The notes beneath the pieces are model-generated. The model saw only the letters and a program-made list of their open reading frames with translations. It had not been told where the DNA came from and did no database searches. Positions 3,447-53,786 of a DNA stretch of 64,000 bases are shown here, one piece after another; within the stretch, counting starts at the first letter, position 1; the number at the start of each line of letters is the position of its first letter. The stretch comes from a virus, in IMG/VR virus record IMGVR_UViG_3300043331_001086, positions 4,820 to 68,819 of that record; one strand, 5' to 3'. The position numbers and the translations under genes are program-made.

Positions 3447-3462
3447 GGAGTACGATCCCGCC

Positions 3463-26224: not shown

Positions 26225-26253
26225 AGCACCCCCGGGTTCGTCCCGGGGGTGCT
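26225..26253. terminator. hairpin terminator between convergent operons
   Basis: AGCACCCCCGGG-TTCGT-CCCGGGGGTGCT perfect 12-bp stem. Confidence 0.7.
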
Positions 26254-26259
26254 GCGCGT

Positions 26260-27116: not shown

Positions 27117-27187
27117 GGCGGACCACGATACCAGCGCGCTGGGGTCCCGAGCAGCCACCCGCCCGGGACCCCAGCGTCCCCGGCTGG

Positions 27188-29079: not shown

Positions 29080-29100
29080 TGTGCCAGGGGGGTGTGACAG

Positions 29101-29784: not shown

Positions 29785-30003
29785 GGGGCACCTCCGGGTG
29801 TCCGGATCGGGGGCCCACCATGTTAGCGCGCTGGGCCACGGTGGGGGTGGGTGTCCGGCTCCGGCCGGCGCGGTACTGTCCCCAACCGCTACCACGCGAA
29901 GCACCCCCCCGGATGGGCCAGGGGGGTGATCGACCAATGGAGGTGCTGTCTCCGTGGAACACTCTACTACCGCCGACCCTGTGACCTGCACCGGTCAACC
30001 GCT

Positions 30004-32003: not shown

Positions 32004-32260
32004 TGCCCATGCCCACCGGACCCCGGCTCGTCGTGGAGTGGGCCGACGGCCAGCTGACCCAGCCCCTGCCCCTCCCCGCGGGGATGACCCCCTGCGAGTG
32101 GGTCGCCCGGCTCGGCGAGGTGCTCGGGCCCGACCGCCGGGTCGCGGCCTGGTCCGTGCACCCCGGGAACCCAGCGCGCTAATGTGGGTGGTGGTCGGGG
32201 GGTGACGGGTTGCGGCCGAGCCCCCTGGCCACCTCAACCCCTCGACGCCGTGGAGGCACG

Positions 32261-32500
32261 ATGACCACCCGCACCCGCACGATGCCCGACCCGACGCAAC
32301 GCACCGTCGTGAGCGTGAACCTCGAAGCCCCGATCCACGCCGAGCGCGTGACCCTGGTCGTGCACGAGCGGCCCCTCGACCTCGGCGAGCCCCTCGAGCG
32401 CGTGGAGGTGGCCCTCACGTGGGGCCAGACCCGGGCCCTGTTCCACAACCTCGCGTCGATCCTCACGACCGAAATGTCCGTCCGCGAGGAGGAGGCGTGA
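32261..32500 (+). CDS. hypothetical protein
   Basis: GGAGG RBS downstream of a promoter motif. Confidence 0.55.
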   Translation: MTTRTRTMPDPTQRTVVSVNLEAPIHAERVTLVVHERPLDLGEPLERVEVALTWGQTRALFHNLASILTTEMSVREEEA

Positions 32501-39708: not shown

Positions 39709-40025
39709 CCTACCGGACCGGCGACCAGTGGATCGGCCGCATCGCCCGCTCGACCCCGCTCTCGTACGACGGGCTCACCGACCGGGGCGGGACGGTGGTC
39801 ATCACGTCGGACCTGTGGCCGAACATGCCCCTCCCCGGGAGCCGGGTGACAATCACCGTCGATGAGTTGCCCCCACGCTGGCAGACCGACACCGACTCGT
39901 CCGGGGACCTCTACCTGCTCTACGAGGGGACGCGCGTCGCCCAGCTGTATCTACCCCTCAAGGACGACGCCGCCGAGGTGCAGAAAGTGCTCGACGTCCT
40001 GAACGCGAAGGATCCCCGTGACTGA
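39705..40025 (+). CDS. hypothetical protein
   Basis: GGAGG RBS, ATGA overlap. Confidence 0.55.
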   Translation: MTYRTGDQWIGRIARSTPLSYDGLTDRGGTVVITSDLWPNMPLPGSRVTITVDELPPRWQTDTDSSGDLYLLYEGTRVAQLYLPLKDDAAEVQKVLDVLNAKDPRD

Positions 40026-40785
40026 CCTCCGCGACCACCTCGACGTCGCCCGGAAGGTGGTCGTCGGCCACCCCCTCTACGACGACCTCACCGACCTCCA
40101 CGCGCTCCGGATCTTCATGGACCACCACGTCTGGGCGGTCTGGGACTTCATGTCGCTGCTCACCGAGCTACAGCGCCGGGTCACCTGCACCACCGTCCCG
40201 TGGGTGCAACCCGCCGCGCCGGCGACCGCGGTCCGCCTGGTCAACGAGATCGTGCTCGGCGAGGAGTCCGACGACGTGCCCGGCTACGGGATCACCTCGC
40301 ACGTGGACCTCTACCGGGCCGCGATGCACGAGGCCGGCGCGTCGACCACCCCGCTCGACGCGTTCCAGGCTGCCGTACGGGTCGCCACGTTGCGCCCCCT
40401 GCGGCTCGCCGCCCTCGCGGGGGTACTGGGGGCCCCCCTCGGTGCCGAGCGGTTCCTGGCGGCCACCATGGCCGTGGTGCAGGCCGGGACCCTGGCCGAC
40501 ATCGTGGGCGCGTTCGCGTTCGGCCGTGAGCAGCTGATCCCCGACCTGTTCCGCCCCCTCCTCGCGAACCCCGCCGCCCGCCTGTTCGGGGTGTACCTCG
40601 AACGCCACGTCCTCATCGACGCCGAGGAGCACGGCCCCGCGGCCGAGCACCTGGTCGACAGCCTGCTCGCGTCGGCCGACCGTGAGCGTGCCTATCAGGC
40701 CGGGCTCGTGGCCCTCGGGGCCCGGTCCGAGCTCTGGTCCAGCGTGCAGCGCGCGATCCATGACGCCCGCCGGGTGGGTCAGTAG
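40018..40785 (+). CDS. DUF3050-like heme-oxygenase-fold protein
   Basis: FMDHHVWAVWDFMSLL, NEIVLGEESD, SH..LY..AM, FGRE.LIP, YLERH...D.EEHGP. Confidence 0.8.
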   Translation: MTDLRDHLDVARKVVVGHPLYDDLTDLHALRIFMDHHVWAVWDFMSLLTELQRRVTCTTVPWVQPAAPATAVRLVNEIVLGEESDDVPGYGITSHVDLYRAAMHEAGASTTPLDAFQAAVRVATLRPLRLAALAGVLGAPLGAERFLAATMAVVQAGTLADIVGAFAFGREQLIPDLFRPLLANPAARLFGVYLERHVLIDAEEHGPAAEHLVDSLLASADRERAYQAGLVALGARSELWSSVQRAIHDARRVGQ

Positions 40786-40795
40786 CGTTGCGGCG

Positions 40796-41488
40796 ATGAC
40801 CGACACCGACCGGCCCCCGCGGTGGCAGGAGTACCTGTCGCTGGACGAACTCCTCGAACGGCGCGACCCGCGCAACCCGAAGGACCACGCCGACCGCGAC
40901 ATCCGGAAGTCGATGGGCCGGTTCGGGTACACCGAGCCGGTCATGGTCGATGAGCGCACCGGGTTCCTCGTCGCCGGGCACGGCCGGGTCGACAACCTCG
41001 CGGCACGGCGCGCCGCCGGGGAGAACCCACCTGACGGGATCGTGGACCACCCCGAGCGCGGCTGGACGGTCCCCACGAACCGAGGCTGGGCGAGCCGGTC
41101 CGACGAGGAAGCCGCCGCCTACCTGGTGGCCGCGAATCAGCTGACCATCAAGGGCGGCTGGAAACCGGACCCCTTCGCCGCGATCCTCGCCGAGCTCCGG
41201 TCCACCGACACCGGGCTCGAGGGGATCGGCCTGTCACCCACCGAGGCCGCCGACATCCTCGCCGCGTACGGGCCCGTGCCCACGCTGGACGAACTCGCCG
41301 ACCAGATCGGTGACCCCGAGCCGGAGGACTTCTGGCCGGTCCTGCGGCTCAAGGTCTCACCGGAGACGAAGGCCGAGTTCGAGCGGTGGCTCGACACGAC
41401 CGGGCAGGTGACCGCGGGCGACGACGCCGTGATGGCCGGTCTCCTCCGGATCGCGACAGCGGCCCTGGCCGACGCGGAGACCTCGTGA
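40796..41488 (+). CDS. ParB/Srx N-terminal-like protein
   Basis: RNPKDH..SMGRFGYTEPV..LVAGHGR..YLVAANQL. Confidence 0.8.
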   Translation: MTDTDRPPRWQEYLSLDELLERRDPRNPKDHADRDIRKSMGRFGYTEPVMVDERTGFLVAGHGRVDNLAARRAAGENPPDGIVDHPERGWTVPTNRGWASRSDEEAAAYLVAANQLTIKGGWKPDPFAAILAELRSTDTGLEGIGLSPTEAADILAAYGPVPTLDELADQIGDPEPEDFWPVLRLKVSPETKAEFERWLDTTGQVTAGDDAVMAGLLRIATAALADAETS

Positions 41489-42423
41489 CGGCCCCGATCG
41501 CGGTCCTGCTCTCCTACCACTTCTGGCGGGACCTCGACCTCGATGAGGCCCTCGGCCTGTGGCCCGAGCACCCGCTCGTGTTCGCCGACTCGGGCGCGTT
41601 CTCCGCGTCGACCGTCGGCGCCGAGGTGGACGTGCACGCCTACGCCGAGTGGCTCGACCGGTGGCGCCACCACTTCGCCGTCGCCTGCACCCTCGACGTC
41701 ATCGGCGATGAGGTGGCGACCGAGACGAACACCCGGATCCTCGAAGGCCACGGCCATCGGGTGCTCCCGGTGTTCCACACGAACGAGCCCTGGGACTACC
41801 TCGAACGCCTGGTGGCCGAGTACCGGTACGTCGGGGTCGGGGGCATGGTCCCCTACAAGATGCGAGAGAAGGCGCTCCTGCGCTGGCTGGTGCAGTGCTT
41901 CCGGGTCGCCGAGGGGACCGGCACCGTGTTCCACGGGCTCGGGCTCACGAACCCCCGGATGCTGGCCCCCCTGCCCTTCTACTCGGTCGACTCGTCGTCG
42001 TGGTGCGCGGGCCTGATCTACGGCCGGATCCACCTCTACGACGGGCTCACCGGCAAGATCCGCCCGGTGCAGGCCGGGGACCGCGGCGCGCTCCTGCGCG
42101 GCGACGAGCTCCGGGCCGTCGGCCTCGACCCCTACGAGGTGGCGACCCCGTACTACGGCCGCCGGGACCCCGACGGCGAGAAGCCCGCCGAGGTGTACCG
42201 CCGGCAACACACCGAGGAAGGCGCCGCGAACCTCGTGGCCGCCGCGGCCCAGGCCGAGTGGTGGCACGCCCGCCACGCCCCCGTGTCCGTCGACGGGATG
42301 CCCGACGGCCCGGTCACGTTCCTCGTCGCGATCAACCCGATGGACCTCGGCCGGATCCGCCAGCACTTCTACCCGACCACCGACCAGGAGACACCCGCAC
42401 ATGGGACAGCTGCCCCCGCATGA
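41485..42423 (+). CDS. TGT/DpdA-like base-exchange transglycosylase
   Basis: DSGAFS, LDVIGD, PVFH, GGMVP, HGLG, SVDSSSW. Confidence 0.8.
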   Translation: MTAPIAVLLSYHFWRDLDLDEALGLWPEHPLVFADSGAFSASTVGAEVDVHAYAEWLDRWRHHFAVACTLDVIGDEVATETNTRILEGHGHRVLPVFHTNEPWDYLERLVAEYRYVGVGGMVPYKMREKALLRWLVQCFRVAEGTGTVFHGLGLTNPRMLAPLPFYSVDSSSWCAGLIYGRIHLYDGLTGKIRPVQAGDRGALLRGDELRAVGLDPYEVATPYYGRRDPDGEKPAEVYRRQHTEEGAANLVAAAAQAEWWHARHAPVSVDGMPDGPVTFLVAINPMDLGRIRQHFYPTTDQETPAHGTAAPA

Positions 42424-43015
42424 CCTCGACCCCTCGAAGCTCGAAGCCGGCACCCGGCTGATCCTCGAGGGGCTCGGCGTCGACCCCACCACCCACGACG
42501 AGGTGGTCGCGAACACCCCCCGCCGGGTGGCCGACCTCTACACCGAGATGATCAACCCCGCGTGGTGCGACGTGGACGAGGTGTTCAAGACCTTCGAGCC
42601 GCCCGAGGCCTGGCGCACCGGCGACATGGTGATGGTCCACGACGTCCACTACGTGTCGATGTGCGAGCACCACCTCGCCCCCAGCTTCGGCGTCGCGCAC
42701 GTCGCGTACATCCCAGACCTCAAGGTCGTCGGCTACTCGAAGCTCAAGAAGGGGCTCAACTACGTCGCCCGCGGACCCCAGCTGAACGAGCGCATCCTCG
42801 CCGACACCCTCGACATCATCGAGAAGCAGGTCGAGCCGAAGGGGTGCGCGCTCGTGTTGCAGTCGACGCACTGCTGCATCGCGCTCCGCTCCTCGGCGCC
42901 GTCACAAGAGGTGGTGACGGTGCAAGGGTTCCGCGGTGACCTCGCCACCGACCCCTGGCGACGGGAGTTCACCGACACGCTGATCGGTCGGAAGCCCCTG
43001 TTCCTCGGGGCGTGA
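42401..43015 (+). CDS. folE: GTP cyclohydrolase I (divergent)
   Basis: TPRRVA, SMCEHH, AYIP..VVG.SKL, Q.NER, H.C zinc ligands. Confidence 0.9.
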   Translation: MGQLPPHDLDPSKLEAGTRLILEGLGVDPTTHDEVVANTPRRVADLYTEMINPAWCDVDEVFKTFEPPEAWRTGDMVMVHDVHYVSMCEHHLAPSFGVAHVAYIPDLKVVGYSKLKKGLNYVARGPQLNERILADTLDIIEKQVEPKGCALVLQSTHCCIALRSSAPSQEVVTVQGFRGDLATDPWRREFTDTLIGRKPLFLGA

Positions 43016-43170
43016 TGCCACATGGAGCGTCGAGTCAGCGCGCTGGGTAGCTTGCGCCCATTGGGGGCCACAGCGCTCTGTGGGCCGCTGGGGGGTCTCC
43101 CGGGTGTAACGACCCATCGGACACCTCGGGAGCGCATAAGTCCTGCCCAGCCCGGGTGTGGAGGGGGTCT

Positions 43171-43461
43171 GTGATGGTCGGTGGCGGGTTCCTCCGGATC
43201 GGCGACAACGGCCAGGCCCAGCACCCCCACACGCTCGAGGACGCGCTCTGGCTCGCGCTCCGGCAGTGCGCCACCCACTCGGCCGGACCTCTCGCGACCG
43301 TCGCCCGGCTGATCGACGCGACCCACGAGGGGATCCTCGACCCGGCCGAGCTCGCGGCCGCGATCCGGACCCGGCTCGACGCCGCGGACATGCCCGCCGA
43401 CCGTCGCCGGGTGGCCGAGGCGTTCCTCGAAGCCCTGTTCGATGGGACGCTCGCCCGATGA
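43171..43461 (+). CDS. hypothetical helical protein
   Basis: GGAGG RBS; coupled to the LOG gene. Confidence 0.5.
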   Translation: MMVGGGFLRIGDNGQAQHPHTLEDALWLALRQCATHSAGPLATVARLIDATHEGILDPAELAAAIRTRLDAADMPADRRRVAEAFLEALFDGTLAR

Positions 43462-43916
43462 CGACCCGCTTCGGTCCCCTCGTCGCGGTCGTCGGCAAGG
43501 GACGCGACTGCCCGGCCGACGTTGTGAACGCCGCCGCGATCGTCGGCCACGAACTCGGCCGTGCCGGCGTCACCCTCCTCACCGGCGGACTCGGCGGCGT
43601 GATGCTGTCGAGCGCGTGCGCGGCCCACGCCGTCGGCGGCCTGGTCGTCGCGCTCCTGCCGCTCGAGGAGGAATGCCTCCCCCCGGCCAACCTCGTGATC
43701 CGGACGGGCCTGTCCCACACCACCCGGAACGTGATCATGGGCACCGCCTGCGACGCGCTCATCGCGCTCGACGGTGGGCCGGGGACCATGCAAGAGGTGG
43801 CCGTCGCCTCCGAGCGCGGAGTGCCGGCCGTCCAGGTGGACACCGACCGGTGGCCACTCCCCCGCATCAGCTACTCGGAGGTGCAGTCATGGGCGAGCAA
43901 GGTCACGAGCAAGTAG
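43458..43916 (+). CDS. LOG/SLOG family protein
   Basis: TGGLGGVM, RNVIM..CDALIAL.GGPGTMQE. Confidence 0.85.
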   Translation: MTTRFGPLVAVVGKGRDCPADVVNAAAIVGHELGRAGVTLLTGGLGGVMLSSACAAHAVGGLVVALLPLEEECLPPANLVIRTGLSHTTRNVIMGTACDALIALDGGPGTMQEVAVASERGVPAVQVDTDRWPLPRISYSEVQSWASKVTSK

Positions 43917-44440
43917 TCGTCGGCTGGGCCGAGGTGACCGTCCTCGCCAGGGCCGTCGCCGCGACCATCCGCGAGACCACCCGCGACATCGAGGCCGGAC
44001 CCGTCGAGGGGATCTACGGCATCCCCCGCGGTGGGTGTGTCCCGGCCGCGCTCATCGCCGGCATGACCGAGATCCCCCTCGTGGAGGCCCCCGGCCCGAC
44101 GGTGTTCGTGGTCGATGACCTCGTGGACTCGGGCCGCACCGCGAAGGACGTCCTGTCCGGCTACCCACAGGTGGCCGGGTTCCGGGCCCTCTACTGCAAG
44201 TCCTGGTCACCCCCCGATCTCACCGCCGGCGCGGTCGTCACCCCCGGCGACCCGTGGCTCGTGTTCCCGTGGGAGGCCCGGGAAATGGCCGCCCAGGACG
44301 CCGTGGTGCGCCTCATGCAGGCAGGGGGGGTGGACACCACCGACCCCGGCGTGGAGCCCGTAGCGGCCGCCCTGGCCGGTGTCCTGCCCAGCCACGTCGC
44401 ATCCCTGGTCGGGGCGTGGCCCGGGGTCGCGATCCAGTAG
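43889..44440 (+). CDS. purine-type phosphoribosyltransferase
   Basis: GIPRGG, VVDDLVDSGRT, WLVFPWE. Confidence 0.85.
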   Translation: MGEQGHEQVVVGWAEVTVLARAVAATIRETTRDIEAGPVEGIYGIPRGGCVPAALIAGMTEIPLVEAPGPTVFVVDDLVDSGRTAKDVLSGYPQVAGFRALYCKSWSPPDLTAGAVVTPGDPWLVFPWEAREMAAQDAVVRLMQAGGVDTTDPGVEPVAAALAGVLPSHVASLVGAWPGVAIQ

Positions 44441-44488
44441 CTATTGGACGTGCGTCGACCCTGCTAGTCGGCGAACTTCCCGGAACGC

Positions 44489-44517
44489 TTGCCACCCCAG
44501 CACAGCGCGCTTAGGTT
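44489..44517 (+). promoter_or_regulatory. strong sigma-A-like promoter
   Basis: TTGCCA-N17-TAGGTT, with AGCGCGCT in the spacer. Confidence 0.75.
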
Positions 44518-44519
44518 GG

Positions 44520-44925
44520 TCCCCGTTAGGAAGTTCCCCCCCAGGAGTGGGGGAGCGAGGGACACGGTGGTAGGCCCCCACGGGGAGCATGAGCCACCCC
44601 CGACCAGCACCAGGTGAGGGTAGCCTTCGGAGGGGCCCGGTGACCGCCACGGAAGTGGGTAGCGGTGGGCGGGACGAGGGGTCACATCCTCGCGAAACCG
44701 ACCACTTCCGACAGACGCAAGCGAGCAAGCAGCGGTTCTCAACACTCCACCGCACGGGCCCGACCTCACCGTCGGGCCCTGCTCGCGCTCACCACCCCCC
44801 GAGCCTTACCTCGACCAGCCAGGCACCGGGCACCTACCACGCGCAGCGACCGTGGAGCGGCCCACCTGGTGTCCCGAGACGGCCGAGGTTGGGTGGTGGG
44901 CGCGAGCAGGGAGGTTCCCTGTGCA
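44520..44925 (+). ncRNA. candidate structured RNA or long 5' leader
   Basis: no credible CDS; multiple stems including a 21-bp stem (44777-44797 with 44891-44911); cTTCGg and GNRA-like sequences. Confidence 0.45.
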
Positions 44926-44945
44926 TCAACCCCGTGGAGGACACG

Positions 44946-45404
44946 ATGAGCACCACGACGAAGTTCGCGACGATGGACGAGGCCCTCGAGGCCTACAAGG
45001 CTGGCGGCAAGGACCGCGGGCTGGTGATCGAGCAGGCGAAGGCCGAGCACGACGCCGTCAAGAAGGCGAAGGCCAGCAAGAAGCGGGCCCCCGCCACCCC
45101 GGCACTCGAGGCCGTCAACAAGGCCAACGAGCTCGGCCTGAACCGCACGAAGTCCAGCAAGGGCACCGGGTCCGGTGGCCGAGCGGTGCGGTTCTCCGAC
45201 ACCGAGTTGGTCGAGATGGTCAAGTCGGCCGTGCAGGCCGGCGAGGCCAGGACGGCCGGTGGGTGCGTCAAGCACTTCCGGGCCATCGGCAAGGGCTCGA
45301 ACGAGAAGCGGGTCAAGCGTGCCTGGGATGCGGCGATCGCCGCGGGCATGACCGTCCCCGAGAAGCCCAGCCAGTCCACCGAGGACACCCCCTCGGAGTC
45401 GTGA
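44946..45404 (+). CDS. Lys-rich hypothetical protein
   Basis: strong RBS; basic composition suggests nucleic-acid binding. Confidence 0.75.
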   Translation: MSTTTKFATMDEALEAYKAGGKDRGLVIEQAKAEHDAVKKAKASKKRAPATPALEAVNKANELGLNRTKSSKGTGSGGRAVRFSDTELVEMVKSAVQAGEARTAGGCVKHFRAIGKGSNEKRVKRAWDAAIAAGMTVPEKPSQSTEDTPSES

Positions 45405-45519
45405 ACCGCCCGCCCTGCCCCCCTCGGGGGGCGGGGCTCGCGGGGCTCATCCGGTACCGCCGGGTGGTCCCCGCGAGCCTCCGAGGTTCGGAGTGACTCA
45501 ACCCCGTGGAGGGAATGCC

Positions 45520-46497
45520 ATGACTGCTTACTTCGATTGCGGATTCTCAGTGCGTCAGCCCGCGTGGCACGGCGAAGCCACCATCCTTGACGAGTACCCC
45601 GAGACGTGGGACGAGGCCAGGATGGCCGCCGGGCTGATGTGGGAACCGGCCGAGCAGAAGCTGTACGTGCCGGGGCCCGAGGGCACGTTCGTTCCGGTCG
45701 ACGGCTTCAAGGCCATCACCCGGGATGACACGGGCGAGGTGTTGGCCACCACGACCGACACGTTCTCGCTGATCACCCACGCAATGATGGGGGAGATCAT
45801 CGAGGCCGTCATCGGCGAGGCCAACGTCAAGTTCGAGACGGCCGGGTCACTCCGGTCGGGCAAGTCCGTGTGGGCGCTGGTCCGGCTGGACGAGCCCTAC
45901 ACGGTGCCGGGCGACGACAGCCCGATCTACCCGTTCCTCGCACTGCTCAACCCCCACGACGGTACCGGGGCCTGCAAGGCCACCTTCACCGACGTGCGGG
46001 TGATCTGCTGGAACACCTGGCAGGCCGCCGAGCAGCGCGCCGAGCGGGACGGGACGTCGTTCTCGTTCCGACACGTGGGCACCCCGGCCGACCGGATCGC
46101 TGAGGCGAAGGGCGCGCTGGCCCAGCTGCGGGACAACTCCCGGGCCCAGGCCGATACGTTCGCCGCCCTGGCGAAGGTGCCCGTCAACGACGAGCAGGTG
46201 CTCACCTTCACCGAGTTGTTCCTGCCGAGCCCCCGGGACACCGGCGAGCTCTGCTCGGACCGGGTGCAGGCCAACGTGGACCACGCCCGAGGCGTGTTCC
46301 GCCGCCTGTACGACGAGTCGGTGACGACCGAGGGGATCCGGGGCAGCGCCTACGGACTCCTGCAGGCCAGCACCGAGTACCTCGACCACGTGCGCCGGTT
46401 CCAGACCCGTGACACCTACGTCGGCCGGACGGTGCTGCGCGCCGAGCCCCTCAAGGCGAAGGCCCTGGCACTCATCGGTGAGGTGACCGGCAACTGA
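45520..46497 (+). CDS. DUF932 family protein
   Basis: PAWHG, FETAGSL..GK.VW, N.HDG, RVICWNT, RH. Confidence 0.85.
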   Translation: MTAYFDCGFSVRQPAWHGEATILDEYPETWDEARMAAGLMWEPAEQKLYVPGPEGTFVPVDGFKAITRDDTGEVLATTTDTFSLITHAMMGEIIEAVIGEANVKFETAGSLRSGKSVWALVRLDEPYTVPGDDSPIYPFLALLNPHDGTGACKATFTDVRVICWNTWQAAEQRAERDGTSFSFRHVGTPADRIAEAKGALAQLRDNSRAQADTFAALAKVPVNDEQVLTFTELFLPSPRDTGELCSDRVQANVDHARGVFRRLYDESVTTEGIRGSAYGLLQASTEYLDHVRRFQTRDTYVGRTVLRAEPLKAKALALIGEVTGN

Positions 46498-46623
46498 GAT
46501 CCCGCCGAAGCGTCGGGTCCGGGCGAGCCGCCCCTCGTCCGGACCTGGCGTGCGCCTCCCCGACCCCAGGCCGGGTGGGCGCACGCTGGGAGGTTCCCGG
46601 CAGTCAACCCCGTGGAGGGCACC

Positions 46624-46857
46624 ATGCCCGCGAACACCCGCTACGTCCTGCTCAAGCGCCAGTGGCGCGCCGGCCGTTGGGTCACCGAGTACGAGGTGAC
46701 CGACCGGCTCATCGACACGCCCGACTCGGCGCTCGCGTGCTACACCGTCGAGCATCACAGGGGCCGACAGGCTGACGTGGTGGCGACCGTGCTCGAGTGG
46801 GAGGCCCGAGGCCGCCCCCGGGACATGGCCGTCCGACGGCGGTGGCCCGCTGCGTGA
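46624..46857 (+). CDS. hypothetical protein
   Basis: preceded by the start-associated repeat. Confidence 0.6.
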   Translation: MPANTRYVLLKRQWRAGRWVTEYEVTDRLIDTPDSALACYTVEHHRGRQADVVATVLEWEARGRPRDMAVRRRWPAA

Positions 46858-47045
46858 TCCCCAGTCAGGGCCCGGCCAGCGTTGCCCGGGCCCTGCACGG
46901 GGGGCTTGACCTGGTGGGGCGCCCGCCGGGTTGAGCCCCCCGTGCAGGGAGACTCCCTGCAACCCGCGCACGACGGTGGGGGGGCCCGGTCTGGCAAGTG
47001 CCGGACCTCCCCACCTCGTGAACATCAACCCCGTGGAGGACAGCC

Positions 47046-47240
47046 ATGCCCCGACCCTTCTCGCCCACGGACCTCGACAGCCCGCTCATCGGGCTGCTCG
47101 ACCAGACCGTCAGCTACAGCGACGACGGCCAGGTCCGAGAGGGCGTGCTCAAGAACGTCCAGCAGGACGGGATGGTGACCATTGCCGACGACGACGGGAT
47201 CGTCGTCGCGGTGGTCCCGGTCGCGAACGTGGTCACATGA
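47046..47240 (+). CDS. hypothetical protein
   Basis: preceded by the start-associated repeat. Confidence 0.6.
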   Translation: MPRPFSPTDLDSPLIGLLDQTVSYSDDGQVREGVLKNVQQDGMVTIADDDGIVVAVVPVANVVT

Positions 47241-47542
47241 CCACGCCCGTGATCGCCGAGTTCACCGACGACCAGCGCCGCACCCTCGGCTACTGGTCCA
47301 ACACCGTCCGACCCCCGCGGTCGGCGCGCCGGCTCGACGCCCGGACGTTCGTGTCCGAGTGCAAGTCCGTCGAGGTGACCCTCCACGAGGGCCACGCCTC
47401 GGACGGGTACAAGTCGGACTTCCGGCGGGTCGTCAAGTGGTGGGTGGTCATCTCGATCACCGATCACGCCACGACCTACCGGCGAGGCCGCCGGTTCTCG
47501 TCCGTGGCGAAGGCCCGCGCGTACTACGGGGAGGTGACATGA
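47237..47542 (+). CDS. hypothetical protein
   Basis: ATGA overlap. Confidence 0.55.
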   Translation: MTTPVIAEFTDDQRRTLGYWSNTVRPPRSARRLDARTFVSECKSVEVTLHEGHASDGYKSDFRRVVKWWVVISITDHATTYRRGRRFSSVAKARAYYGEVT

Positions 47543-47777
47543 CCTGCCCGATCTGTGGCGCCGAGCGGCCCGAGGAGGTGCACCTCGACTGGTGCACCTA
47601 CGACGGCCCCGAGCCCGACGAGGACGACGACTGACGCGTTCGCGGATCGGAGGCGCCGTCCCCCTCCGGCACCTCCGATCCCGCGGTGGCTCGCCCGCCC
47701 GTACAAACTGCCGTGCGGCGGGACGGGCGGGCCACCGCGGGAAGGCCCCGCACTCAACCCCGTGGAAGGACAGACCG

Positions 47778-47960
47778 ATGACCACGAAGGCTCAGGCCCG
47801 CCGGAAGCACCGCCCCACGACGGGCCCGGTCGGCGCCCACACCATCACCCGCGACCGGTACATCGCCGCCGAGCTCCTGCGCGACGCGCAGCACCCCGGC
47901 CGGTACCGCCCCGAGTACGTCGCCGCGCTGCGACGGATCCAGAGTCGGGGCGGGCAGTGA
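47778..47960 (+). CDS. hypothetical protein
   Basis: preceded by the start-associated repeat. Confidence 0.6.
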   Translation: MTTKAQARRKHRPTTGPVGAHTITRDRYIAAELLRDAQHPGRYRPEYVAALRRIQSRGGQ

Positions 47961-48163
47961 GCCTCGCCTCGGACCTCGCGGACGTGCTCGGCGAGGCCGG
48001 ATGCGACGCGTCGACCGTCGACCACCTCGACGGTCGGGCGTGGCACACCGCCCTGCAGCTGGTGCAGGTCCGCCGAGGCCGGCGACCCAGCCATCACTAC
48101 ATCGTGCCGAGCGACTCGACCCAGGCCGCAGCGACCGCGATCTTGCGTCGAGCGCGCCCCTGA
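47957..48163 (+). CDS. hypothetical protein
   Basis: GTGA overlap. Confidence 0.5.
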   Translation: MSLASDLADVLGEAGCDASTVDHLDGRAWHTALQLVQVRRGRRPSHHYIVPSDSTQAAATAILRRARP

Positions 48164-48190
48164 TCGCCCTTCCACGGGGGCGCAACCGTG

Positions 48191-48231
48191 GGAGCCCCCC
48201 AGGTCAGCCGGACAGGCGCCTGGGGGGCTCC
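48191..48231 (+). terminator. hairpin terminator
   Basis: GGAGCCCCCCAGG..CCTGGGGGGCTCC 13-bp stem followed by TGCGCGTC, the same tail as the 26225 hairpin. Confidence 0.65.
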
Positions 48232-48268
48232 TGCGCGTCTCCGGTCGGCCGGGGTACTGTCACACCCC

Positions 48269-48943
48269 ATGGCGAAGCGTTCGGGCCCAGGGCGGCCACC
48301 CAGAGACCCGTACGGGATTGTGGACTACCGCGCCGTCCCCCAGGACGACGGGACCATCGTGCGGGAACCCGTCACCGTGATCGACCGGGTGGAGGAGGCC
48401 CTGCGACAGAACGGGTTCATCCACGACGCGGCTGGTCGGTCGGGGCTCGCCGTCGAGACCCTCCGACAGTGGCGGGCGAAGGGGGTCCGGGCGAACGCCG
48501 ACATCCTCGCCGGGCGCCGCCGGCGCGCCGACCTCGACACCCACGAACGCCGGTGCGCCGAGCTTGCGACCCGCATGGAACGCGCCGAGGCCGACGCCCG
48601 TCTGTCCCTTCTCGCCGTCACCTCGGCCCTGGCCCGCGGCGGACTCGAGGTGGTCCACACCACCGAGAAGCAGAACGCCGGTGGCGACGTCCTCGAGAAG
48701 GTGGTCCGGACCTCGCGGTCGCTGCCCGACAGCCACGCCGCGACGTGGCTCCTCGCCCACCGGTACCCGGCGGACTTCGCTGGCCGGGTCGAGGTGACCG
48801 GGCCCGACCGGGGTCCGATCGAGGTGGCCGTGTCCCCCGTCGATCAGCTGCTCAACGCGATCAACGCGGTCCGCGAACGACGGGACGGCGTGTCCTCGAA
48901 CGGTGACACCCCGGCCCCGGCGGGCAACGGTGCACACGGGTAG
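48269..48943 (+). CDS. putative terminase small subunit
   Basis: GRPP, HTH-like segment, AATWLLAHRYP.DF..RVEVTGPDRGPIEV. Confidence 0.7.
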   Translation: MAKRSGPGRPPRDPYGIVDYRAVPQDDGTIVREPVTVIDRVEEALRQNGFIHDAAGRSGLAVETLRQWRAKGVRANADILAGRRRRADLDTHERRCAELATRMERAEADARLSLLAVTSALARGGLEVVHTTEKQNAGGDVLEKVVRTSRSLPDSHAATWLLAHRYPADFAGRVEVTGPDRGPIEVAVSPVDQLLNAINAVRERRDGVSSNGDTPAPAGNGAHG

Positions 48944-48977
48944 GTCCTCGAAGCGCAAACAGGAACCGGTTACCCTT

Positions 48978-49394
48978 GTGCCCGTGCGCACGATCGCCGT
49001 GACCGATCTTCTCGACCTCAGCTTCCGGCAGGTGGACTACCTGTGCCGGAGCGGCGCGATCGACCCTGAGCTCGTGGGCGGCGGCCAGGGGTGCGGCAGC
49101 CGCCGGGTCTGGCCCCCCGAGGTGGTGGCCCGGCTCGAAGTCGCGCTCGCGCTGTGGCGCGCCTGCCCGACCGTGGACACCGGCCAGCCGGGTGGCCCGG
49201 TCTGGACCAGCCTCGTGCGGGCCGTCATGGACAATCCCGTCGACCCCCCGTGGGCCGGGTGGGTGGTCCTCGATGACCTCGGCCAGGTCCACTACGGGTC
49301 CGACGACGCCGAGCGCGGCCGGATCCTCGGCCGGGTCGACGGCGCGCTCGTGGCCCGCTACGTGCTCCGCTCCCCCACCGCACCAGCGCGCTAA
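48978..49394 (+). CDS. MerR-like HTH protein
   Basis: LSFRQVDYL.R.G.I.P..G.GSRRVW; start uncertain. Confidence 0.65.
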   Translation: MPVRTIAVTDLLDLSFRQVDYLCRSGAIDPELVGGGQGCGSRRVWPPEVVARLEVALALWRACPTVDTGQPGGPVWTSLVRAVMDNPVDPPWAGWVVLDDLGQVHYGSDDAERGRILGRVDGALVARYVLRSPTAPAR

Positions 49395-49433
49395 CATGGT
49401 GGGGCCCCATCGACCCCCTCGGAGGTGCCCGCC

Positions 49434-49691
49434 ATGTCCTACTCACAGACCCTCACCGACGCCGCGCTGATCAACCGGATGCGTCGGCTTGAGGCCTGGT
49501 CTCTCGTGGCCCTGCTCGTGTTCCTGGTCGCGCTGGCCGTCGCCTGGTACGCCTACTCGTTCGGCGCGCTGATCGCCGCGGTCATCGCGCTGGCGGTGCG
49601 CGCCGAGCTCGAACGCCTGGCCCGCGCCGGGCTCGCCGAGGCCCAGTCCCGCGGGCTGGCGCGACTCCTCGCCCGCAAGGCCGACGCGTGA
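49434..49691 (+). CDS. membrane protein
   Basis: two TM segments; GGAGG RBS. Confidence 0.6.
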   Translation: MSYSQTLTDAALINRMRRLEAWSLVALLVFLVALAVAWYAYSFGALIAAVIALAVRAELERLARAGLAEAQSRGLARLLARKADA

Positions 49692-51145: not shown

Positions 51146-52570
51146 GTGGCCGAGTCGATCTTCGAGCGCCTCGCGTCGCTACCCGACGACGAGCTCAAAG
51201 AGGCGATCGCCGCGCTCGATGAGGCCGAGGTTGCCCGGCTCCTCGTGTCGTGGGAGTTCTGGGCCCGACCCGAGCAGGTGGCCGAGTCCTGGGCGTGGCG
51301 GTTCTGGGCGATCATCACTGGCCGGGGGTGGGGGAAGAACCGGACCGCGGCCGAGTGGGTCCTCGACCGGTGCCAGGCATTCGCCGACGCCGGGGCCCCC
51401 CACCTCATCGGCCTGTTCGGCCGGATCAAGGACGACGTTCACGAACTGCAGCTGGGTGGCGAGTCCGGTCTGATCCGCTGCGCCGAGCGGCGCGGCTGGC
51501 GCGTCGACGCCCCGAGTTCGTCGGACACCTTCCGGGTGTACGTGCCCCTGCCCGACGGGGGCTGGCACGTCTCCGACGGCGAGGTGCACTCCTCGACCGA
51601 CCCGGACTCCTGCCGAGGCCGGAACTTCCACACGGTCTGGGGTGACGAGTTCGCCTCGTGGTCCCACAAGACAGACCTCGAAGGCAACACGACGTGGACG
51701 AACATGGGCTTCGGCCTGCGGTCCCCGTGCCCCCCGGGGATGCACCCCCAGGCCGTCGTGACGACGACCCCGAAGCCGATCCCGGTCGTGAAGGAACTTC
51801 TCGCCGGGAAGTACGGGCCGACGGCCGTCACCCGCGGGTCGCTCCACGACAACGTGGCGAACCTCGACCCGACCTTCGTGAGCGCGATCGTCGGGGCGTT
51901 CGCCGGCACCCGGCTCGAACAGCAGGAGATCCACGGGGAGCTCGTCACCTCAGTCGAGGGGGCCCTGTGGAACATGGACCTCATCGCCCGCTGGCGGGTC
52001 AGCTGGGACCGGGTGCCGGACCTCGGGCACATCTGCATCGGCGTCGACCCGTCCGGTTCCGAGGCCGGCGACGAGTGCGGCATCGTCGCGTCGGGCCGCG
52101 CGATCCAGCGGGACTCGAAGGACCGTCTCCACGGCTACGTGCTCGAGGACGCCTCGGTGCGCAACCGGCCATCGGTGTGGGGGCCCGCGGTCGTCAAGCT
52201 GTACCACGACCTCGCCGAGTTGTTCCCGAACGTCCGCATCGACGTCGTGGCCGAGACGAACTACGGCGGCGCCATGGTGGTCGACACGATCGCCATGCGC
52301 GACCCGAGCATCAACGTCGTCACCGTCACCGCGACCCGGGCGAAGCGGGTCCGCGCCGAGCCCGTCGCGACCCTCTACGACACGGGCCGCTGGCACCACG
52401 TCGGCGTGTTCCCTCAACTCGAGGAGCAGATGTGCTGGTGGACCCCGCTCGAACCGACCTCACCGGACCGGATGGACGCGCTCGCCTGGTCCGCGCACGG
52501 CCTGTTGCCCGAGCTCGCGCAGATGATGTCCGGCTTCTCGCCAGGCTTCTCCGAACGCACTCTGGACTGA
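51146..52570 (+). CDS. terminase large subunit
   Basis: GRGWGKNR Walker A, WGDE Walker B, TTTP, IGVDP RuvC-like domain, SPDRMDAL. Confidence 0.95.
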   Translation: MAESIFERLASLPDDELKEAIAALDEAEVARLLVSWEFWARPEQVAESWAWRFWAIITGRGWGKNRTAAEWVLDRCQAFADAGAPHLIGLFGRIKDDVHELQLGGESGLIRCAERRGWRVDAPSSSDTFRVYVPLPDGGWHVSDGEVHSSTDPDSCRGRNFHTVWGDEFASWSHKTDLEGNTTWTNMGFGLRSPCPPGMHPQAVVTTTPKPIPVVKELLAGKYGPTAVTRGSLHDNVANLDPTFVSAIVGAFAGTRLEQQEIHGELVTSVEGALWNMDLIARWRVSWDRVPDLGHICIGVDPSGSEAGDECGIVASGRAIQRDSKDRLHGYVLEDASVRNRPSVWGPAVVKLYHDLAELFPNVRIDVVAETNYGGAMVVDTIAMRDPSINVVTVTATRAKRVRAEPVATLYDTGRWHHVGVFPQLEEQMCWWTPLEPTSPDRMDALAWSAHGLLPELAQMMSGFSPGFSERTLD

Positions 52571-52640
52571 TCCCGGCGGGCCGGTACCCAGCGCGCTAAC
52601 ATGGCCCTTGCACCCCCGACCTCAACCCCAGGAGGACACG

Positions 52641-53786
52641 ATGCAGGGAGCCACCACCCACCAGGCCACGAACGACCTCGTGACCGCGCTCGCCGACCAG
52701 GCCACCGACCTCGGCTGGACGGCCGACGACGTGGCCGCGCTCAGCCCTGCCGAGTGGGTGTATCTCCGGTCCCACGCCGGGCACGGCTACGGCCCCGAGC
52801 CCAGCCACGAGGTGAAGGGCCAGGTCATCACCGTCCTGCGTGACCGGGCCGCGCACCCCGACCCGTTCGAGGGGCTCAGCTGATGCTGGTCCTCTACGGG
52901 CTCGTGCCCCTCACGGTCATGGCGATCGCTGCCCGGTGGATCGTGCAGGACTGGCGGTCCCGGCGATGACCTTCTACCGGTACCGCGGCGTCCGCCGGTC
53001 CGGGGCCCCCATCGTGGGTCGCACCCCGGATCATCCCACCCGGTTCGTACCCGCCGAGTACGACGCCCGCCGTTGGGAGACCCTCGAGGTGTACGCCGCC
53101 GACGCCGACCCCGACGACGAGGACTTCGAGGTGCTCGGCGCGATCACCCGTGACGACGCCGGCACACCGGTCTGGTGGGTGGACACCCATGGGTGACGTC
53201 GACCTTGTGTGGGACGACGACCTCATCTGGTGCCCGTCCCAGTGCTACGCCCCCGTCGAGTGGCCCGACGGCACCCCAGCGGTGCTCTACCTCCGCTGGC
53301 GCCATGACGACCCGTGGGGCGCGTCCATCGTCACCCTGCCCACCCGCGACACCCGGGTCGCCGACCCGGCGACCACGTGGGATGACGTCGACATCGGCTG
53401 GTGGCGCGACGACCAGCTGGCCGAAGCGAAGGCCGCGTTCGTGGCCGTCTGGGAGGAGAAGCGCAATGCCCAGTGAACGCCGCTGGTCCGTCATCGGCCA
53501 CAGCGACAGCCTCTACGTGTCCCGCCTCGACAACGGTCCCGCCTACCGCGCGTTCGACAGCGACCAGGCCCACGCCCTCGCCGACACTCTCAACCTCGTC
53601 GCCGGGTTGCGCGGTGTCGTTCGCCGGCTGGACGAGGGGTGGCAGATCGTGGAGGACGAGGACGGGCAACCGTGCGGCTGGTACCTCGAATCCGGGATGG
53701 ACGACATCGACATCAGCGGCGACGACACGATGACGCCCGACGAGGTGGCCGCACTCGTGAGCGTCCGGAGGGAGAACGATGGGTGA
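52641..53786 (+). other. small coupled hypothetical ORFs (52641-52883, 52966-53196, 53189-53476, 53466-53786)
   Basis: promoter motif at 52590, RBS sites, overlapping stops and starts. Confidence 0.55.

Follow-up and report, generated by a model that had tools for sequence, protein, structure and literature searches.

The DNA analysed here, which we call the window, is a 64,000-nt stretch of a 68,819-base record from a nearly complete uncultured phage of actinobacterial type, found in soil and with a GC content of 72%. Structural genes (capsid, adaptor, tape-measure, tail) occupy window positions 1-26162, and an array of five units lies at 44.4-47.8 kb: gene A; a DUF932 gene; gene C; genes D-E-F; and gene G (Table 1). 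Among the proteins of the array, which an earlier note on this DNA read as a possible early host-takeover or anti-defence set, a family could be assigned with Pfam or PHROGs to the DUF932 protein only, and no phage homologue of gene A was found. Just 5' of the array, an RHH-like protein is encoded at 43156-43461, as judged from a weak match (E 4e-4) below the Pfam cut-off. Profile searches, in which 43 ORFs were compared with Pfam and 10 of these plus 8 others (4 large ORFs included) were scanned with PHROGs, detected no integrase among the ORFs tested. Rfam gave no matches at the gathering threshold over the whole window, and at E ≤ 1 a single sub-threshold match (E 0.18) in 44300-48400, to the model of a vertebrate lncRNA. 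The five gaps are non-coding; in the one before gene A (44589-44945) GC content by codon position is 0.69/0.68/0.72 versus 0.59/0.52/0.95 in gene A.

Table 1. Features of the array and of two related sites elsewhere in the window.
Feature	Position	Strand	Remarks
Sixth, degenerate copy	32172..32263	+	promoter-like repeat; 14-bp hairpin 32190-32233 abutting TCAACCCC; 6-nt insertion; CCGTGGAGG; ATG 32261
Candidate array promoter	44503..44518	+	variant of CAGCGCGCTAACATGG, 12/16 bases; putative promoter role
Copy 1 hairpin 1	44756..44779	+	9 bp
Copy 1 hairpin 2	44781..44907	+	long, branched; base helix 21 nt, 95% complementary; 3' arm homologous to copy 3
Copy 1 mini-hairpin	44907..44921	+	CAGGGA-GGT-TCCCTG
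Copy 1 15-mer	44926..44948	+	with 5-nt spacer and ATG of gene A
Gene A	44946-45404	+	152 aa, no family; stop codon 45402-45404
Copy 2 hairpin 1	45412..45437	+	11 bp; 7 nt past stop codon
Copy 2 hairpin 2	45438..45476	+	8+9 bp
Copy 2 mini-hairpin	45479..45493	+	CTCCGA-GGT-TCGGAG; 3 inner pairs swapped relative to copy 1
Copy 2 15-mer	45498..45522	+	with 7-nt spacer and ATG of DUF932 gene
DUF932 gene	45520-46497	+	start ATG 45520
Copy 3 hairpin 1	46512..46549	+	16 bp
Copy 3 hairpin 2	46550..46584	+	
Copy 3 mini-hairpin	46585..46601	+	7 bp, one U-G pair included
Copy 3 15-mer	46604..46626	+	with ATG of gene C
Gene C	46624-46857	+	77 aa
Copy 4 hairpin 1	46866..46895	+	
Copy 4 hairpin 2	46897..46943	+	22 bp, 3-nt loop
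Copy 4 mini-hairpin	46944..46965	+	loop GAC; runs into first CAACCC (46960)
Copy 4 extra hairpin 3	46969..47020	+	between first CAACCC and full 15-mer
Copy 4 15-mer	47025..47048	+	with ATG of gene D
Gene D	47046-47240	+	ATG 47046
Genes E, F	47237-47542, 47539-47634	+	follow gene D; stop/start codons overlap
Copy 5 hairpin 1	47647..47678	+	
Copy 5 hairpin 2	47679..47742	+	about 24 bp
Copy 5 mini-hairpin	47737..47751	+	GCGGG-AAGGC-CCCGC; weak, overlaps hairpin 2
Copy 5 15-mer	47754..47780	+	one mismatch (GGAAGG); with ATG of gene G
Gene G	47778-47960	+	ATG 47778
Hairpin-less copy	52589..52643	+	promoter-like repeat, then TCAACCCCAGGAGG, ATG 52641

The 15-mer TCAACCCCGTGGAGG occurs in four exact copies and one with a single mismatch, all on the + strand and all 5' of an ATG. 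Its 14-mer CAACCCCGTGGAGG is exact at 44927, 45499, 46605 and 47026, carries the mismatch at 47755, is directly preceded by T in 5/5 copies and ends 5, 7, 5, 6 and 9 nt before the respective ATG. When up to two mismatches were allowed, the window held nine matches against 1.63 ± 1.23 expected, a number reached in 0 of 100 shuffles; over the whole record the motif was present in five forward and no reverse copies, and the motif read backwards gave none on either strand. Within the 15-mer, GGAGG is the usual Shine-Dalgarno (SD) core, and the ten bases 5' of this core are invariant in all five copies. In the pairing ensembles of these copies the CAACCCC tract was mostly unpaired (mean P 0.64-0.84).

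The earlier note on this DNA had described five copies. All five are real, but the family is larger: the looser arrangement CAACCC(C)+SD+ATG was found at seven more sites, six on the + strand (32235, 36230, 52623, 56637, 57889, 58843) and one on the - strand (29064), the latter preceding a - strand gene and thus matching its orientation. This phage-wide start motif, of which the 15-mer forms the strict core, had been overlooked in the note, as had the promoter-like repeat 5' of the array. None of the 12 sites lies among the structural genes, and all are at starts of non-structural genes. The start codon is ATG at 12/12 of them versus 40/80 other + strand starts (GC3 heuristic calls). CAACCCC itself stood just 5' of a start in 12 of its 25 occurrences by reading (11/21 on the + strand, 1/4 on the - strand), those at 36230 and 36249 (+) both preceding one start. 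Among the other viral contigs listed, the 14-mer was found at at least 118 loci, each time as a single copy in unrelated context and never as a repeated start motif.

The three-hairpin architecture that had been proposed to precede the motif held up as well: in 5/5 gaps a hairpin 1, a long hairpin 2 and a mini-hairpin precede the 15-mer, and the reported mini-hairpins were all recovered (44907-44921, 45479-45493, 46586-46600, 46945-46959 and 47737-47751). Relative to dinucleotide shuffles, fold z was -6.01 for 44750-44950 and -3.72, -3.51, -6.95 and -5.33 for gaps 2 to 5. The energy density of the five gaps was -0.58 to -0.69 kcal/nt versus -0.36 to -0.58 in nine further gaps between genes of this phage. 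Hairpin 1 begins 7-14 nt past the stop codon and is directly followed by hairpin 2, which is long in copies 1, 4 and 5 (21-24 bp) but shorter and interrupted in copies 2 and 3 (14-17 bp); neither hairpin has a sequence common to all copies, and no U-tract lies 3' of the hairpins. The extra hairpin noted in the fourth copy is likewise real and is flanked by a duplicated CAACCC (46960, 47026). The mini-hairpin of copy 5, a 5-nt loop on a stem of just 5 bp, is in competition with the 3' arm of hairpin 2, and in the predicted fold of copy 2 a CCUCCG:SD pairing is preferred over the mini-hairpin. Such competing anti-SD pairing was seen in copy 2 only, the SD partners being mostly local and inconsistent, and the general conformational translation switch that had been suggested is not supported.

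Covariation of the mini-hairpin was assessed on a set of five to six paralogous copies, of which copies 1, 3 and 4 are of common descent. In this set 78.6% of cells pair and 3/7 pairs are altered on both sides. The covariation score was 0.438 versus 0.149 ± 0.076 for shuffles, 0 of 500 of which reached it, and slid controls gave at most 0.152; RNAalifold predicted the mini-hairpin independently. The bases of hairpin 2 are homologous between copies 1 and 3, which share 25 nt at 88% identity outside the motif; their 13 aligned pairs include two double changes, two G-C/G-U exchanges and one break. The compensatory changes claimed earlier are present both in the mini-hairpin and at the base of hairpin 2. 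A DNA contig from a soil run (n=1, depth 2.8) carries a variant of copy 5 hairpin 2 in which the two stem substitutions each replace a G-C by a G-U pair on the + strand, the remaining changes falling in the apical loop or deleting the bulged A.

The layout recurs in the closest relative, L124, whose DUF932 protein is 62% identical. There the DUF932 gene is followed by an 11-bp hairpin 1, a hairpin 2 of about 24 bp, a mini-hairpin, CAACCC, SD and ATG (z -5.88), an orthologous junction in which the hairpin sequence is unrelated. Two or more strong hairpins follow the DUF932 gene in at least 5 of the 14 relatives' loci with downstream sequence (L124, L132, L135, L136 and L138, by reading; a fifteenth locus had no such sequence), and likewise in the cultured Microbacterium phage Margaery. 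At the corresponding junctions relatives carry hairpin(s) together with a sigma-70-like promoter. The covariation score, the RNAalifold prediction, the compensated hairpin-2 pairs of copies 1 and 3 and the L124 layout point to a shared fold beyond that expected by chance from GC-rich DNA, as the earlier note had anticipated, and support the view that the hairpins are a selected structure.

Within 43500-49000 we found no sigma-70-like sites and no terminator-like sites (GC-rich hairpin plus U-tract), and the gaps, when read for TTGNNN-17-TANNNT, contained none. A repeat, CAGCGCGCTAACATGG, is exact at 29818(-), 49384(+) and 52589(+) and has two mismatches at 32172(+), that is four occurrences versus 0.40 expected. 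Two motif copies, those at 32172 and 52589, lie 3' of this promoter-like repeat. No transcript ends were seen, the sole truly fitting piece from an RNA library being a 268-nt contig that falls within the DUF932 gene and is possibly DNA.

Start-associated sequences (SAS) have been described in Cluster K mycobacteriophages (Pope 2011, PMC3203893) and in Cluster EF Microbacterium phages (PMC7302621), and their function is still poorly understood in the literature. As portrayed there, SAS resemble the present motif in being short and asymmetric, in holding an SD core with conservation beyond that core, and in standing a few bases 5' of the start codon in gene orientation, as do 5/5 strict copies here and the copy at 29064 (-). 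They share with it a number of about a dozen copies, restriction to non-structural genes (here 0/12 in 1-26162), a strong ATG preference and an inverted repeat directly 5' in a subset of copies. The sequences, in contrast, are unrelated (TCAACCCCGTGGAGG here, GGGATAGGAGCCC in Cluster K, GGGAAAGGACCCC in Cluster EF), and the motif matches neither SAS consensus. The ESAS (PMC3203893) is a 17-bp inverted repeat of conserved sequence with a SigA-like promoter inside, and its departures do not support RNA pairing. Here, the pairing is kept and the sequence is not, the hairpins form stacks of two or three, and there is no recognisable promoter; with hairpin sequences that vary between copies and no promoter-like sites in 43500-49000, the array hairpins are not ESAS.

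Closer to the gene arrangement are the promoter-early stem-loop (PeSL) cassettes of the T4-type phages RB49 and phi1 (PMC2839356). These place a GC-rich stem-loop with G-T pairs plus an SD between stop codon and ATG and flank small ORFans in a variable region, as is the case here, and their repeated identity could drive cassette shuffling. [quoted passage not shown] GC-rich stem-loops that lack a U-tract are also known between early genes of a high-GC actinophage, Streptomyces phage phiC31, where rho-independent terminators without poly-U tails were reported (Ingham, Hunter and Smith 1995, cited in PMC3993855 and PMC8355165), a comparison that extends to the title of that report alone. The hairpins here differ in being stacked and in preceding genes without promoters, which full termination would therefore silence; nor, given the missing U-tract and the lack of terminator-like sites in 43500-49000, are they canonical intrinsic terminators.

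Phage T7 carries RNase III processing sites between its early genes, and these sites have characteristic internal loops. The array resembles this arrangement in its long intercistronic hairpins, with a hairpin 2 of 21-24 bp in copies 1, 4 and 5, if its genes are indeed carried on a polycistronic early transcript; by analogy, cleavage would leave the upstream mRNA with a 3' hairpin and the downstream mRNA with a free RBS. It differs in that the stems are near-perfect and in the shorter, interrupted hairpin 2 of copies 2 and 3. An integron cassette array does not fit: by reading, GTTRRRY-like strings, as in attC sites, occur in two hairpins only and without the matching inverse core (RYYYAAC), and no integrase was present among the tested ORFs.

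On balance, and with moderate confidence, we favour a reading in which an SAS-like start motif is combined with intercistronic hairpins that lack a U-tract and serve in the attenuation, processing or stabilisation of a polycistronic mRNA. In a first layer, translation would be initiated at a motif specific to this phage, represented in its strict form by TCAACCCCGTGGAGG, in which an unpaired CA/C-rich tract (CAACCCC) is fused to the SD core a few bases 5' of ATG. It would mark those non-structural genes with which a new translation unit opens and act like an SAS, as an RBS whose conservation may reach well past the needs of SD pairing, presumably conferring initiation that is strong or dependent on a factor reading the motif. 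In a second layer, the five units, having no promoters of their own, would most likely share one transcript that starts at the promoter-like repeat near 44503 or further upstream. On such an RNA, hairpins 1 and 2 may cause partial termination without a U-tract and/or be targets of double-strand-specific cleavage, and may also stabilise the upstream cistron as barriers at its 3' side; the mini-hairpin, a stem-loop at the 5' side of the downstream segment, would protect that segment and hold the start motif single-stranded. Among the points that count against this reading, hairpins without a U-tract are reported, in the title and abstract listing of PMC3993855, to give no termination with mycobacterial RNA polymerase in vitro, and the candidate promoter at 44503 is only a 12/16 variant of the repeat.

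A possible but rather unlikely alternative is that the junctions, with 15-46 nt of identity each plus hairpins, are mainly homologous-exchange sites that shuffle small ORFan cassettes, like the PeSL elements of T4-type phages, effects on expression being secondary. When 14 window proteins (42401-49691) were compared by tblastn with the loci of seven relatives, homologues were found only for the DUF932 protein and two post-array genes, which are common to L124; genes A, C, D, E, F and G had none in these loci, and in L124 the array slot is filled by two different small genes. This lends some support to the cassette idea of the earlier note, whose three mechanisms the present data do not separate. 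Shuffling would also fit the identity that copies 1 and 3 share beyond the motif and the double CAACCC around the extra hairpin of gap 4, which resembles a junction scar. PeSL mini-circles, too, arise by exchange between SD and -10 regions (PMC2839356), but PeSLs are defined by the strong sigma-70 promoter that we did not find. Identity suffices for exchange, so that the compensated stems and the L124 fold of unrelated sequence are left unexplained; moreover, no contig was seen that joins two motifs with a cassette deleted, the one listed joint having 39 foreign letters and a 28-nt side.

We consider it unlikely that the repeats are protein sites on DNA, with the 15-mer acting like a stoperator of Cluster A mycobacteriophages or the mini-hairpin as an ESAS-like operator, and that the array is under transcriptional control by a phage regulator bound there. 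In favour, the motif is asymmetric, lies between genes and has a single orientation, the mini-hairpin is a 15-bp palindrome, and the RHH-like gene, itself a weak match, lies just 5' of the array. For the ESAS, DNA binding was favoured by Pope 2011 (PMC3203893), yet the variation seen there is the opposite of that seen here: a shared operator should keep its half-sites, and CAGGGA, CTCCGA and GCGGG differ with pairing kept. The summed fold energies of the strands are nearly equal (-479.7 kcal/mol for + and -468.8 for -), and for copies 1 and 5 the - strand gives the slightly more stable fold, so a DNA-level role is possible. Fold z was better on the + strand in 5/5 segments, modest evidence that the structure is carried by sense-strand RNA. 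The G-U pairs that had been taken as a sign of RNA-level selection proved a weak one, at 24/272 on the + strand versus 18/267 on the - strand. Furthermore, the motif always comes with an SD, 5-9 nt before an ATG and on the strand of its gene (29064 on -), and the long hairpins 1 and 2 share no sequence at all.

The virion RNA polymerase of phage N4 uses hairpin promoters. That the mini-hairpins and the conserved bases downstream are likewise read by a phage-specific polymerase or factor, each unit being transcribed separately, appears very improbable. The mini-hairpin has a suitable geometry (a stem of 5-7 bp with a 3-nt loop), the upstream hairpins 1 and 2 would in that case be genuine terminators, and relatives carry a promoter at exactly this position. 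Against this, neither an RNA polymerase nor a sigma factor turned up among the 43 ORFs tested against Pfam, the biggest ORFs encode the tape-measure protein (1079 aa) and a tail-region protein (1048 aa), the mini-hairpin sequence is unconserved in copies 2 and 5 and in L124, and two motif copies (32172, 52589) lie downstream of the ordinary promoter-like repeat.

Chance folding of GC-rich intergenic DNA, with the 15-mer merely a recent duplication, is hardly credible: at 72% GC the 3' end of a hairpin of at least 6 bp falls in 8.5% of 7-nt windows across the window, and copies 1, 3 and 4 do share descent, but this explanation is contradicted by z of -3.5 to -7.0 against dinucleotide shuffles, by gaps that fold more densely than the nine others of the same phage, by covarying mini-hairpin pairs, by the like layout of L124 without sequence similarity, and by a 15-mer that is identical while its flanks have wholly diverged.

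In each of the five intergenic leaders at about 44757, 45410, 46517, 46866 and 47644 (copies 1 to 5, in gaps 1 to 5), folding gave three hairpins (hairpin 1, the longer hairpin 2 and a mini-hairpin) in the places that an earlier note on this DNA had assigned to them. Hairpin 1 comprises 9-16 bp and begins 7-14 nt past the upstream stop codon, and a U-tract is absent after all hairpins. Relative to dinucleotide shuffles, the folds of copies 1 to 5 had z values of -6.01, -3.72, -3.51, -6.95 and -5.33, and their energy per nucleotide (-0.58 to -0.69 kcal) was compared with that of nine other gaps of the same phage (-0.36 to -0.58 kcal). The genes of the non-structural arm mostly overlap or abut, with the exception of 44441-48268, where the gaps measure 505, 115, 126, 188, 143 and 308 nt. 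Gap 1 is truly non-coding; a reading frame through it (ATG at 44589, in frame with gene A) was rejected because its GC3 is 0.72 there versus 0.95 in the gene. Strong structure also extends over the initial 316 nt of this 505-nt non-coding gap (z -3.43 for the whole gap); no Rfam family matched the stretch, which may represent a small RNA or a long structured leader. Additional hairpins of high stability lie between gene G and the terS-like gene, in a 308-nt gap that lacks a start motif; among them is a stem of ~20 bp near 48186-48236.

When 60-nt flanks were added, hairpins 1 and 2 were retained in all five gaps, and the mini-hairpin was present in the minimum-energy or centroid fold of four of the five. 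In copy 2 with flanks, pairing of CCUCCG with the SD replaced the mini-hairpin, which did form with 45 nt of upstream sequence alone. Several minimum-energy folds of the bare gaps had a cloverleaf or a long-range closing helix from post-stop sequence to the SD, of a kind suited to translation coupling; these helices disappeared or altered with flanks of 30-60 nt and were dropped. A translation switch, as a general mechanism that sequesters the SD, was not supported: the probability that the SD is unpaired ranged from 0.23 to 0.74 with inconsistent partners, and a competing anti-SD pairing was found only in copy 2.

Features of the window, with coordinates, strand and remarks
Feature	Position	Strand	Remark
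Virion genes	1 to ~26,160	+	major head protein, head-tail adaptor, tape-measure protein; family scans
Convergent gap	26163-26432		between virion genes and minus-strand block
Short block	26433-29784	-	Gam-like and RecT-like genes; family scans
Looser start-motif site	29064	-	precedes RecT-like gene
Promoter-like repeat	29818-29833	-	CAGCGCGCTAACATGG, exact
Non-structural arm	29851 to end	+	DnaB-like helicase, UvrD-like helicase, C5 cytosine methylase, queuine-tRNA-ribosyltransferase-like gene, GTP cyclohydrolase I, terminase large subunit
Promoter-like repeat	32172-32187	+	2 mismatches
Looser start-motif site	32235	+	TCAACCCC, 6-nt insertion, CCGTGGAGG
Looser start-motif sites	36230, 56637, 57889, 58843	+	CAACCC, SD and start
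Putative nucleotide-modification gene set	40018-44440		directly upstream of array
Structured stretch before copy 1	44441-44756		
Promoter-like repeat, variant	44503-44518		12/16 bases
Start motif, copy 1	44927	+	exact; 5 nt to ATG
Gene A	44946-45404	+	no family
Start motif, copy 2	45499	+	exact; 7 nt to ATG
DUF932 gene	45520-46497	+	Pfam E 7e-45
Start motif, copy 3	46605	+	exact; 5 nt to ATG
Gene C	46624-46857	+	after copy 3
Start motif, copy 4	47026	+	exact; 6 nt to ATG
Gene D	47046-47240	+	then genes E and F with overlapping stop/start codons
Start motif, copy 5	47755	+	1 mismatch; 9 nt to ATG
Gene G	47778-47960	+	after copy 5
Gap after gene G	47961-48268		
terS-like gene	48269-48943		weak
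Promoter-like repeat	49384-49399	+	exact
Terminase large subunit	51146-52570		
Promoter-like repeat	52589-52604	+	exact
Looser start-motif site	52623	+	TCAACCCCAGGAGG

The shared architecture is real, and its structure is under selection. The earlier note had argued for RNA-level selection from compensatory changes, and that argument is sound. Selection is indicated by four lines of evidence: covariation of the mini-hairpin, hairpin 2 of copies 1 and 3, the layout of the closest relative and, as a hint, a natural variant. In a MAFFT alignment of six mini-hairpins (five from the window and one from a relative), 78.6% of cells were paired and double-sided changes occurred at three of the seven pairs (6 cells). 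The covariation score was 0.438 versus 0.149 ± 0.076 in column shuffles, none of 500 of which reached it, and slid controls stayed at or below 0.152; RNAalifold recovered the helix unprompted. Copy 2 keeps the closing pairs and GGT loop of copy 1 with the three inner pairs swapped, while copy 3 has a U-G pair in place of an A-U pair of copy 1. This covariation amounts to few events, because copies 1, 3 and 4 share descent. Copies 1 and 3 are 88% identical over 25 nt, a stretch made up of the mini-hairpin and the 3' arm of hairpin 2. The 13 aligned pairs at the base of their hairpin 2, read by eye, include two double changes (A-U to C-G and G-C to A-U), two G-C/G-U switches and one broken pair.

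The closest relative (locus L124), whose DUF932 protein is 62% identical and is the best DUF932 match, has an 11-bp hairpin, a ~24-bp hairpin and a 4-bp mini-hairpin directly after its DUF932 gene, followed by one base, CAACCC, an SD and ATG (z -5.88). Read side by side, this junction and gap 3 of the window had no similarity beyond the start motif. No close relatives for phylogenetic covariation were found, so that the covariation rests on paralogues and one orthologous junction. Hairpin 2 of copy 5 (47679-47742) occurs in variant form on one soil-metagenome contig, where both stem substitutions (C to T at 47698 and 47732) turn a G-C into a G-U pair on the + strand; the apical loop of the variant differs by a further three substitutions and a 3-nt insertion, and the bulged A at 47723 is missing. 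A single contig of depth 2.8 gives only a hint that the natural variant may behave like an RNA stem.

Evidence that the + strand carries the structure is modest. The z value was better on the + than on the - strand in all five segments compared (-3.72/-2.03, -3.51/-2.29, -5.03/-1.70, -5.33/-3.13 and, for the junction of the closest relative, -5.88/-3.57). Raw energies were nearly equal (-479.7 on the + versus -468.8 kcal/mol on the - strand), and G-U pairs made up 24 of 272 versus 18 of 267 pairs; they are therefore a weak sign of RNA-level selection, for which they had been cited. In contrast to the five gaps of the array, the convergent gap between the virion genes and the minus-strand block was clearly asymmetric, folding at -153.4 kcal/mol on the + versus -128.5 kcal/mol on the - strand, with 15 versus 1 G-U pairs.

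All five leaders end in the 14-mer CAACCCCGTGGAGG, which includes the SD. A T directly precedes it in every copy, which bears out the 15-nt length originally given for the motif. At up to two mismatches the 14-mer had nine matches in the window versus 1.63 ± 1.23 expected, and none of 100 shuffles reached nine; the entire record holds five forward and no reverse copies, and a backwards-read control gave no matches. Among the matches listed in other viruses (at least 118 viral contigs) it was never repeated, being always a single copy in unrelated contexts, such as coding or tRNA-like sequence. A longer pattern of the 14-mer and half of the mini-hairpin had no matches in other viruses.

A search for CAACCC, an SD and a start codon revealed seven sites besides the strict copies. 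None of the 12 start-motif sites lies in structural genes, and all 12 are on ATG, versus 40 of 80 other heuristically called starts. As read from the occurrence list, CAACCCC stands just upstream of a start in 11 of 21 cases on the + strand, two of which (36230 and 36249) share one start, and in one of four on the - strand. In the five copies this tract was predicted to be mostly single-stranded (0.64-0.84). One relative (L131) has its own version, in which ACCCCGAGGAGC is followed by one variable base, CACC and the start codon in all but one of the five listed copies (that one differs after GGAG); it precedes five genes (four ATG, one GTG), in one case just past a 10-bp hairpin. Similar C-rich-plus-SD strings occur in L124, L135 and Microbacterium phage Margaery.

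These sites resemble the start-associated sequences (SAS) of Cluster K phages. According to the sections of Pope et al. (2011, PMC3203893) that describe it, SAS is a 13-bp asymmetric motif in 11-19 copies, always oriented the same way, 3-7 bp ahead of start codons, and confined to the non-structural half of the genome; 80 of 93 sites are on ATG, an inverted repeat precedes half of the sites, and the function is unknown. A second motif of SAS type is described for Cluster EF Microbacterium phages in part of PMC7302621. The role of SAS is "not known" in the relevant passage of a 2024 paper and needs experimental verification according to that of a 2025 paper. The CAACCC-SD motif of the window has the placement traits that define SAS but is unrelated in sequence to both the Cluster K and the Cluster EF motifs, and is therefore an analogue of SAS and not a member by sequence. 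The 15-mer is part of a larger start-motif family, and the observation as a whole is best filed as an SAS analogue combined with stacked intercistronic hairpins.

The 16-mer CAGCGCGCTAACATGG has four matches versus 0.40 expected, and the variant lies 440 nt ahead of gene A. It contains a TANNNT hexamer and each copy points toward the genes behind it, so that it probably represents the phage's own type of promoter or operator. Downstream of the repeat at 32172 stands a 14-bp hairpin directly adjoining TCAACCCC, so that a hairpin beside a start motif would also stand at the 5' end of a would-be primary transcript. A scan of 43500-49000 revealed no sigma-70-like promoter, and scanning and reading gave no promoter-like string in gaps 2-5. 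In relatives, a hairpin and a sigma-70-like promoter precede DUF932 (L124, L125), two tandem hairpins and a promoter follow it (L132, L136), or, in Margaery, two strong hairpins at the DUF932 junction are followed by an RBS only. The L124 locus also has at least three copies (3087-3184, 3848-4003 and 6547-7017 of that locus) of a promoter-like repeat of its own, which sits inside an inverted repeat (CCGTTACCGCG ... CGCGGTAACG), a layout resembling ESAS, the inverted-repeat elements upstream of SAS, and PeSL, the promoter-early stem-loop cassettes of T4-type phages. No RNA polymerase or sigma factor was found among 43 ORFs compared with Pfam; PHROGs scans covered ten of these and eight others (four large). 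One metatranscriptome run contained an identical 268-nt piece within the DUF932 gene, which may be DNA carry-over; its other listed pieces were 35-nt partial matches with five differences, and none of those listed fell on the hairpin gaps.

From the anatomy of the array, units A to G would most likely be read as one transcript. Hairpins 1 and 2 would then not be full terminators, because the downstream genes need read-through. They would instead act in at least one of three ways: by attenuation, so that expression is graded from unit to unit, as substrates for double-strand-specific cleavage, or as barriers at the 3' end of each upstream cistron, which they would stabilise. The mini-hairpin would shield the downstream segment on its 5' side and leave the CA/C-rich start motif accessible to the ribosome or to a factor. 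Two published reports pull opposite ways: U-less terminators were reported for the early region of phiC31 (Ingham 1995), and mycobacterial RNA polymerase was reported to need a U-tract (PMC3993855). It is conceivable, though rather unlikely, that all of the following holds together: that the three-hairpin module serves an uncultured actinophage lineage as an RNA punctuation mark, conserved in structure and free in sequence, at which double-strand- or end-dependent RNases of the host cut the early polycistronic transcript; that each ORFan cassette is thereby released as a separate mRNA bearing a mini-hairpin at its 5' end and a protective pair of hairpins at its 3' end; that a dedicated factor of phage or host recognises the invariant CAACCCC-SD motif and ranks the mRNAs for translation; and that the modules are also portable linkers that move ORFans between phages with expression signals intact.

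The strongest rival, drawn by analogy with PeSL (PMC2839356), is that the modules would be mainly recombination linkers. Different ORFans indeed fill the slot from DUF932 to the terS-like gene here and in L124, and gap 4 has a duplicated CAACCC flanking an extra hairpin. However, exchange would not need compensated stems, no promoter was found, unlike in PeSL, and no exchange products were seen; a linker role and an RNA-level role are in any case compatible. A joint in one DNA run omitting 45343-47873 had 39 foreign letters and a 28-nt side, and was taken to be chimeric or to stem from another organism. No match to gene A or to the terS-like gene was found in viral contigs and none to the DUF932 protein in genome contigs, and cultured phages reached at most 38% identity. 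DNA-level operators, hairpin promoters and chance are less likely readings, as are integron attC sites, which were set aside together with an N4-type hairpin promoter and iterons or an origin.

SAS has been known since 2011 without a demonstrated function, and the phage of the window adds a third, unrelated motif under the same placement rules, which argues for SAS as a general strategy among actinobacterial phages rather than one cluster's quirk. Here the start motif is coupled to hairpins conserved in pairing and not in sequence, the opposite of ESAS, and this points to an RNA-level mechanism of SAS-type elements. Stacked U-less hairpins between promoterless genes also bear on the old dispute over what such structures do to transcripts in high-GC bacteria: termination, attenuation or no more than stabilisation. 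Should the modules mark cassette boundaries as well, they would help to explain the exchange of ORFans in highly mosaic genomes.

The viral record comprises 68,819 bases, of which the window takes up 4820-68819, and is 95% complete (CheckV), and the GC content of the window is 70-75% along its entire length; no tRNA genes were found and no Rfam families matched in the window. The gene layout was derived from a GC3-based gene call and family scans, with heuristic starts outside the hairpin array. The genes directly upstream of the array (DUF3050, queuine tRNA-ribosyltransferase-like, GTP cyclohydrolase I, SLOG-family and phosphoribosyltransferase-like) form a set typical of 7-deazaguanine or queuosine-type nucleotide modification. 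The genes for the terminase large subunit and the weak terS-like protein lie in the middle of the right arm, distant from the capsid genes at the left end, and the linear record is probably permuted relative to the packaged genome. In the first 4.8 kb of the record, outside the window (locus L147), a 773-aa ORF (1377-3698 of that locus) with a domain of the 2'-5' RNA ligase (2H phosphoesterase) superfamily adjoins an AAA ATPase with a DUF5925 domain, and the two possibly have RNA-repair or RNA-processing functions.
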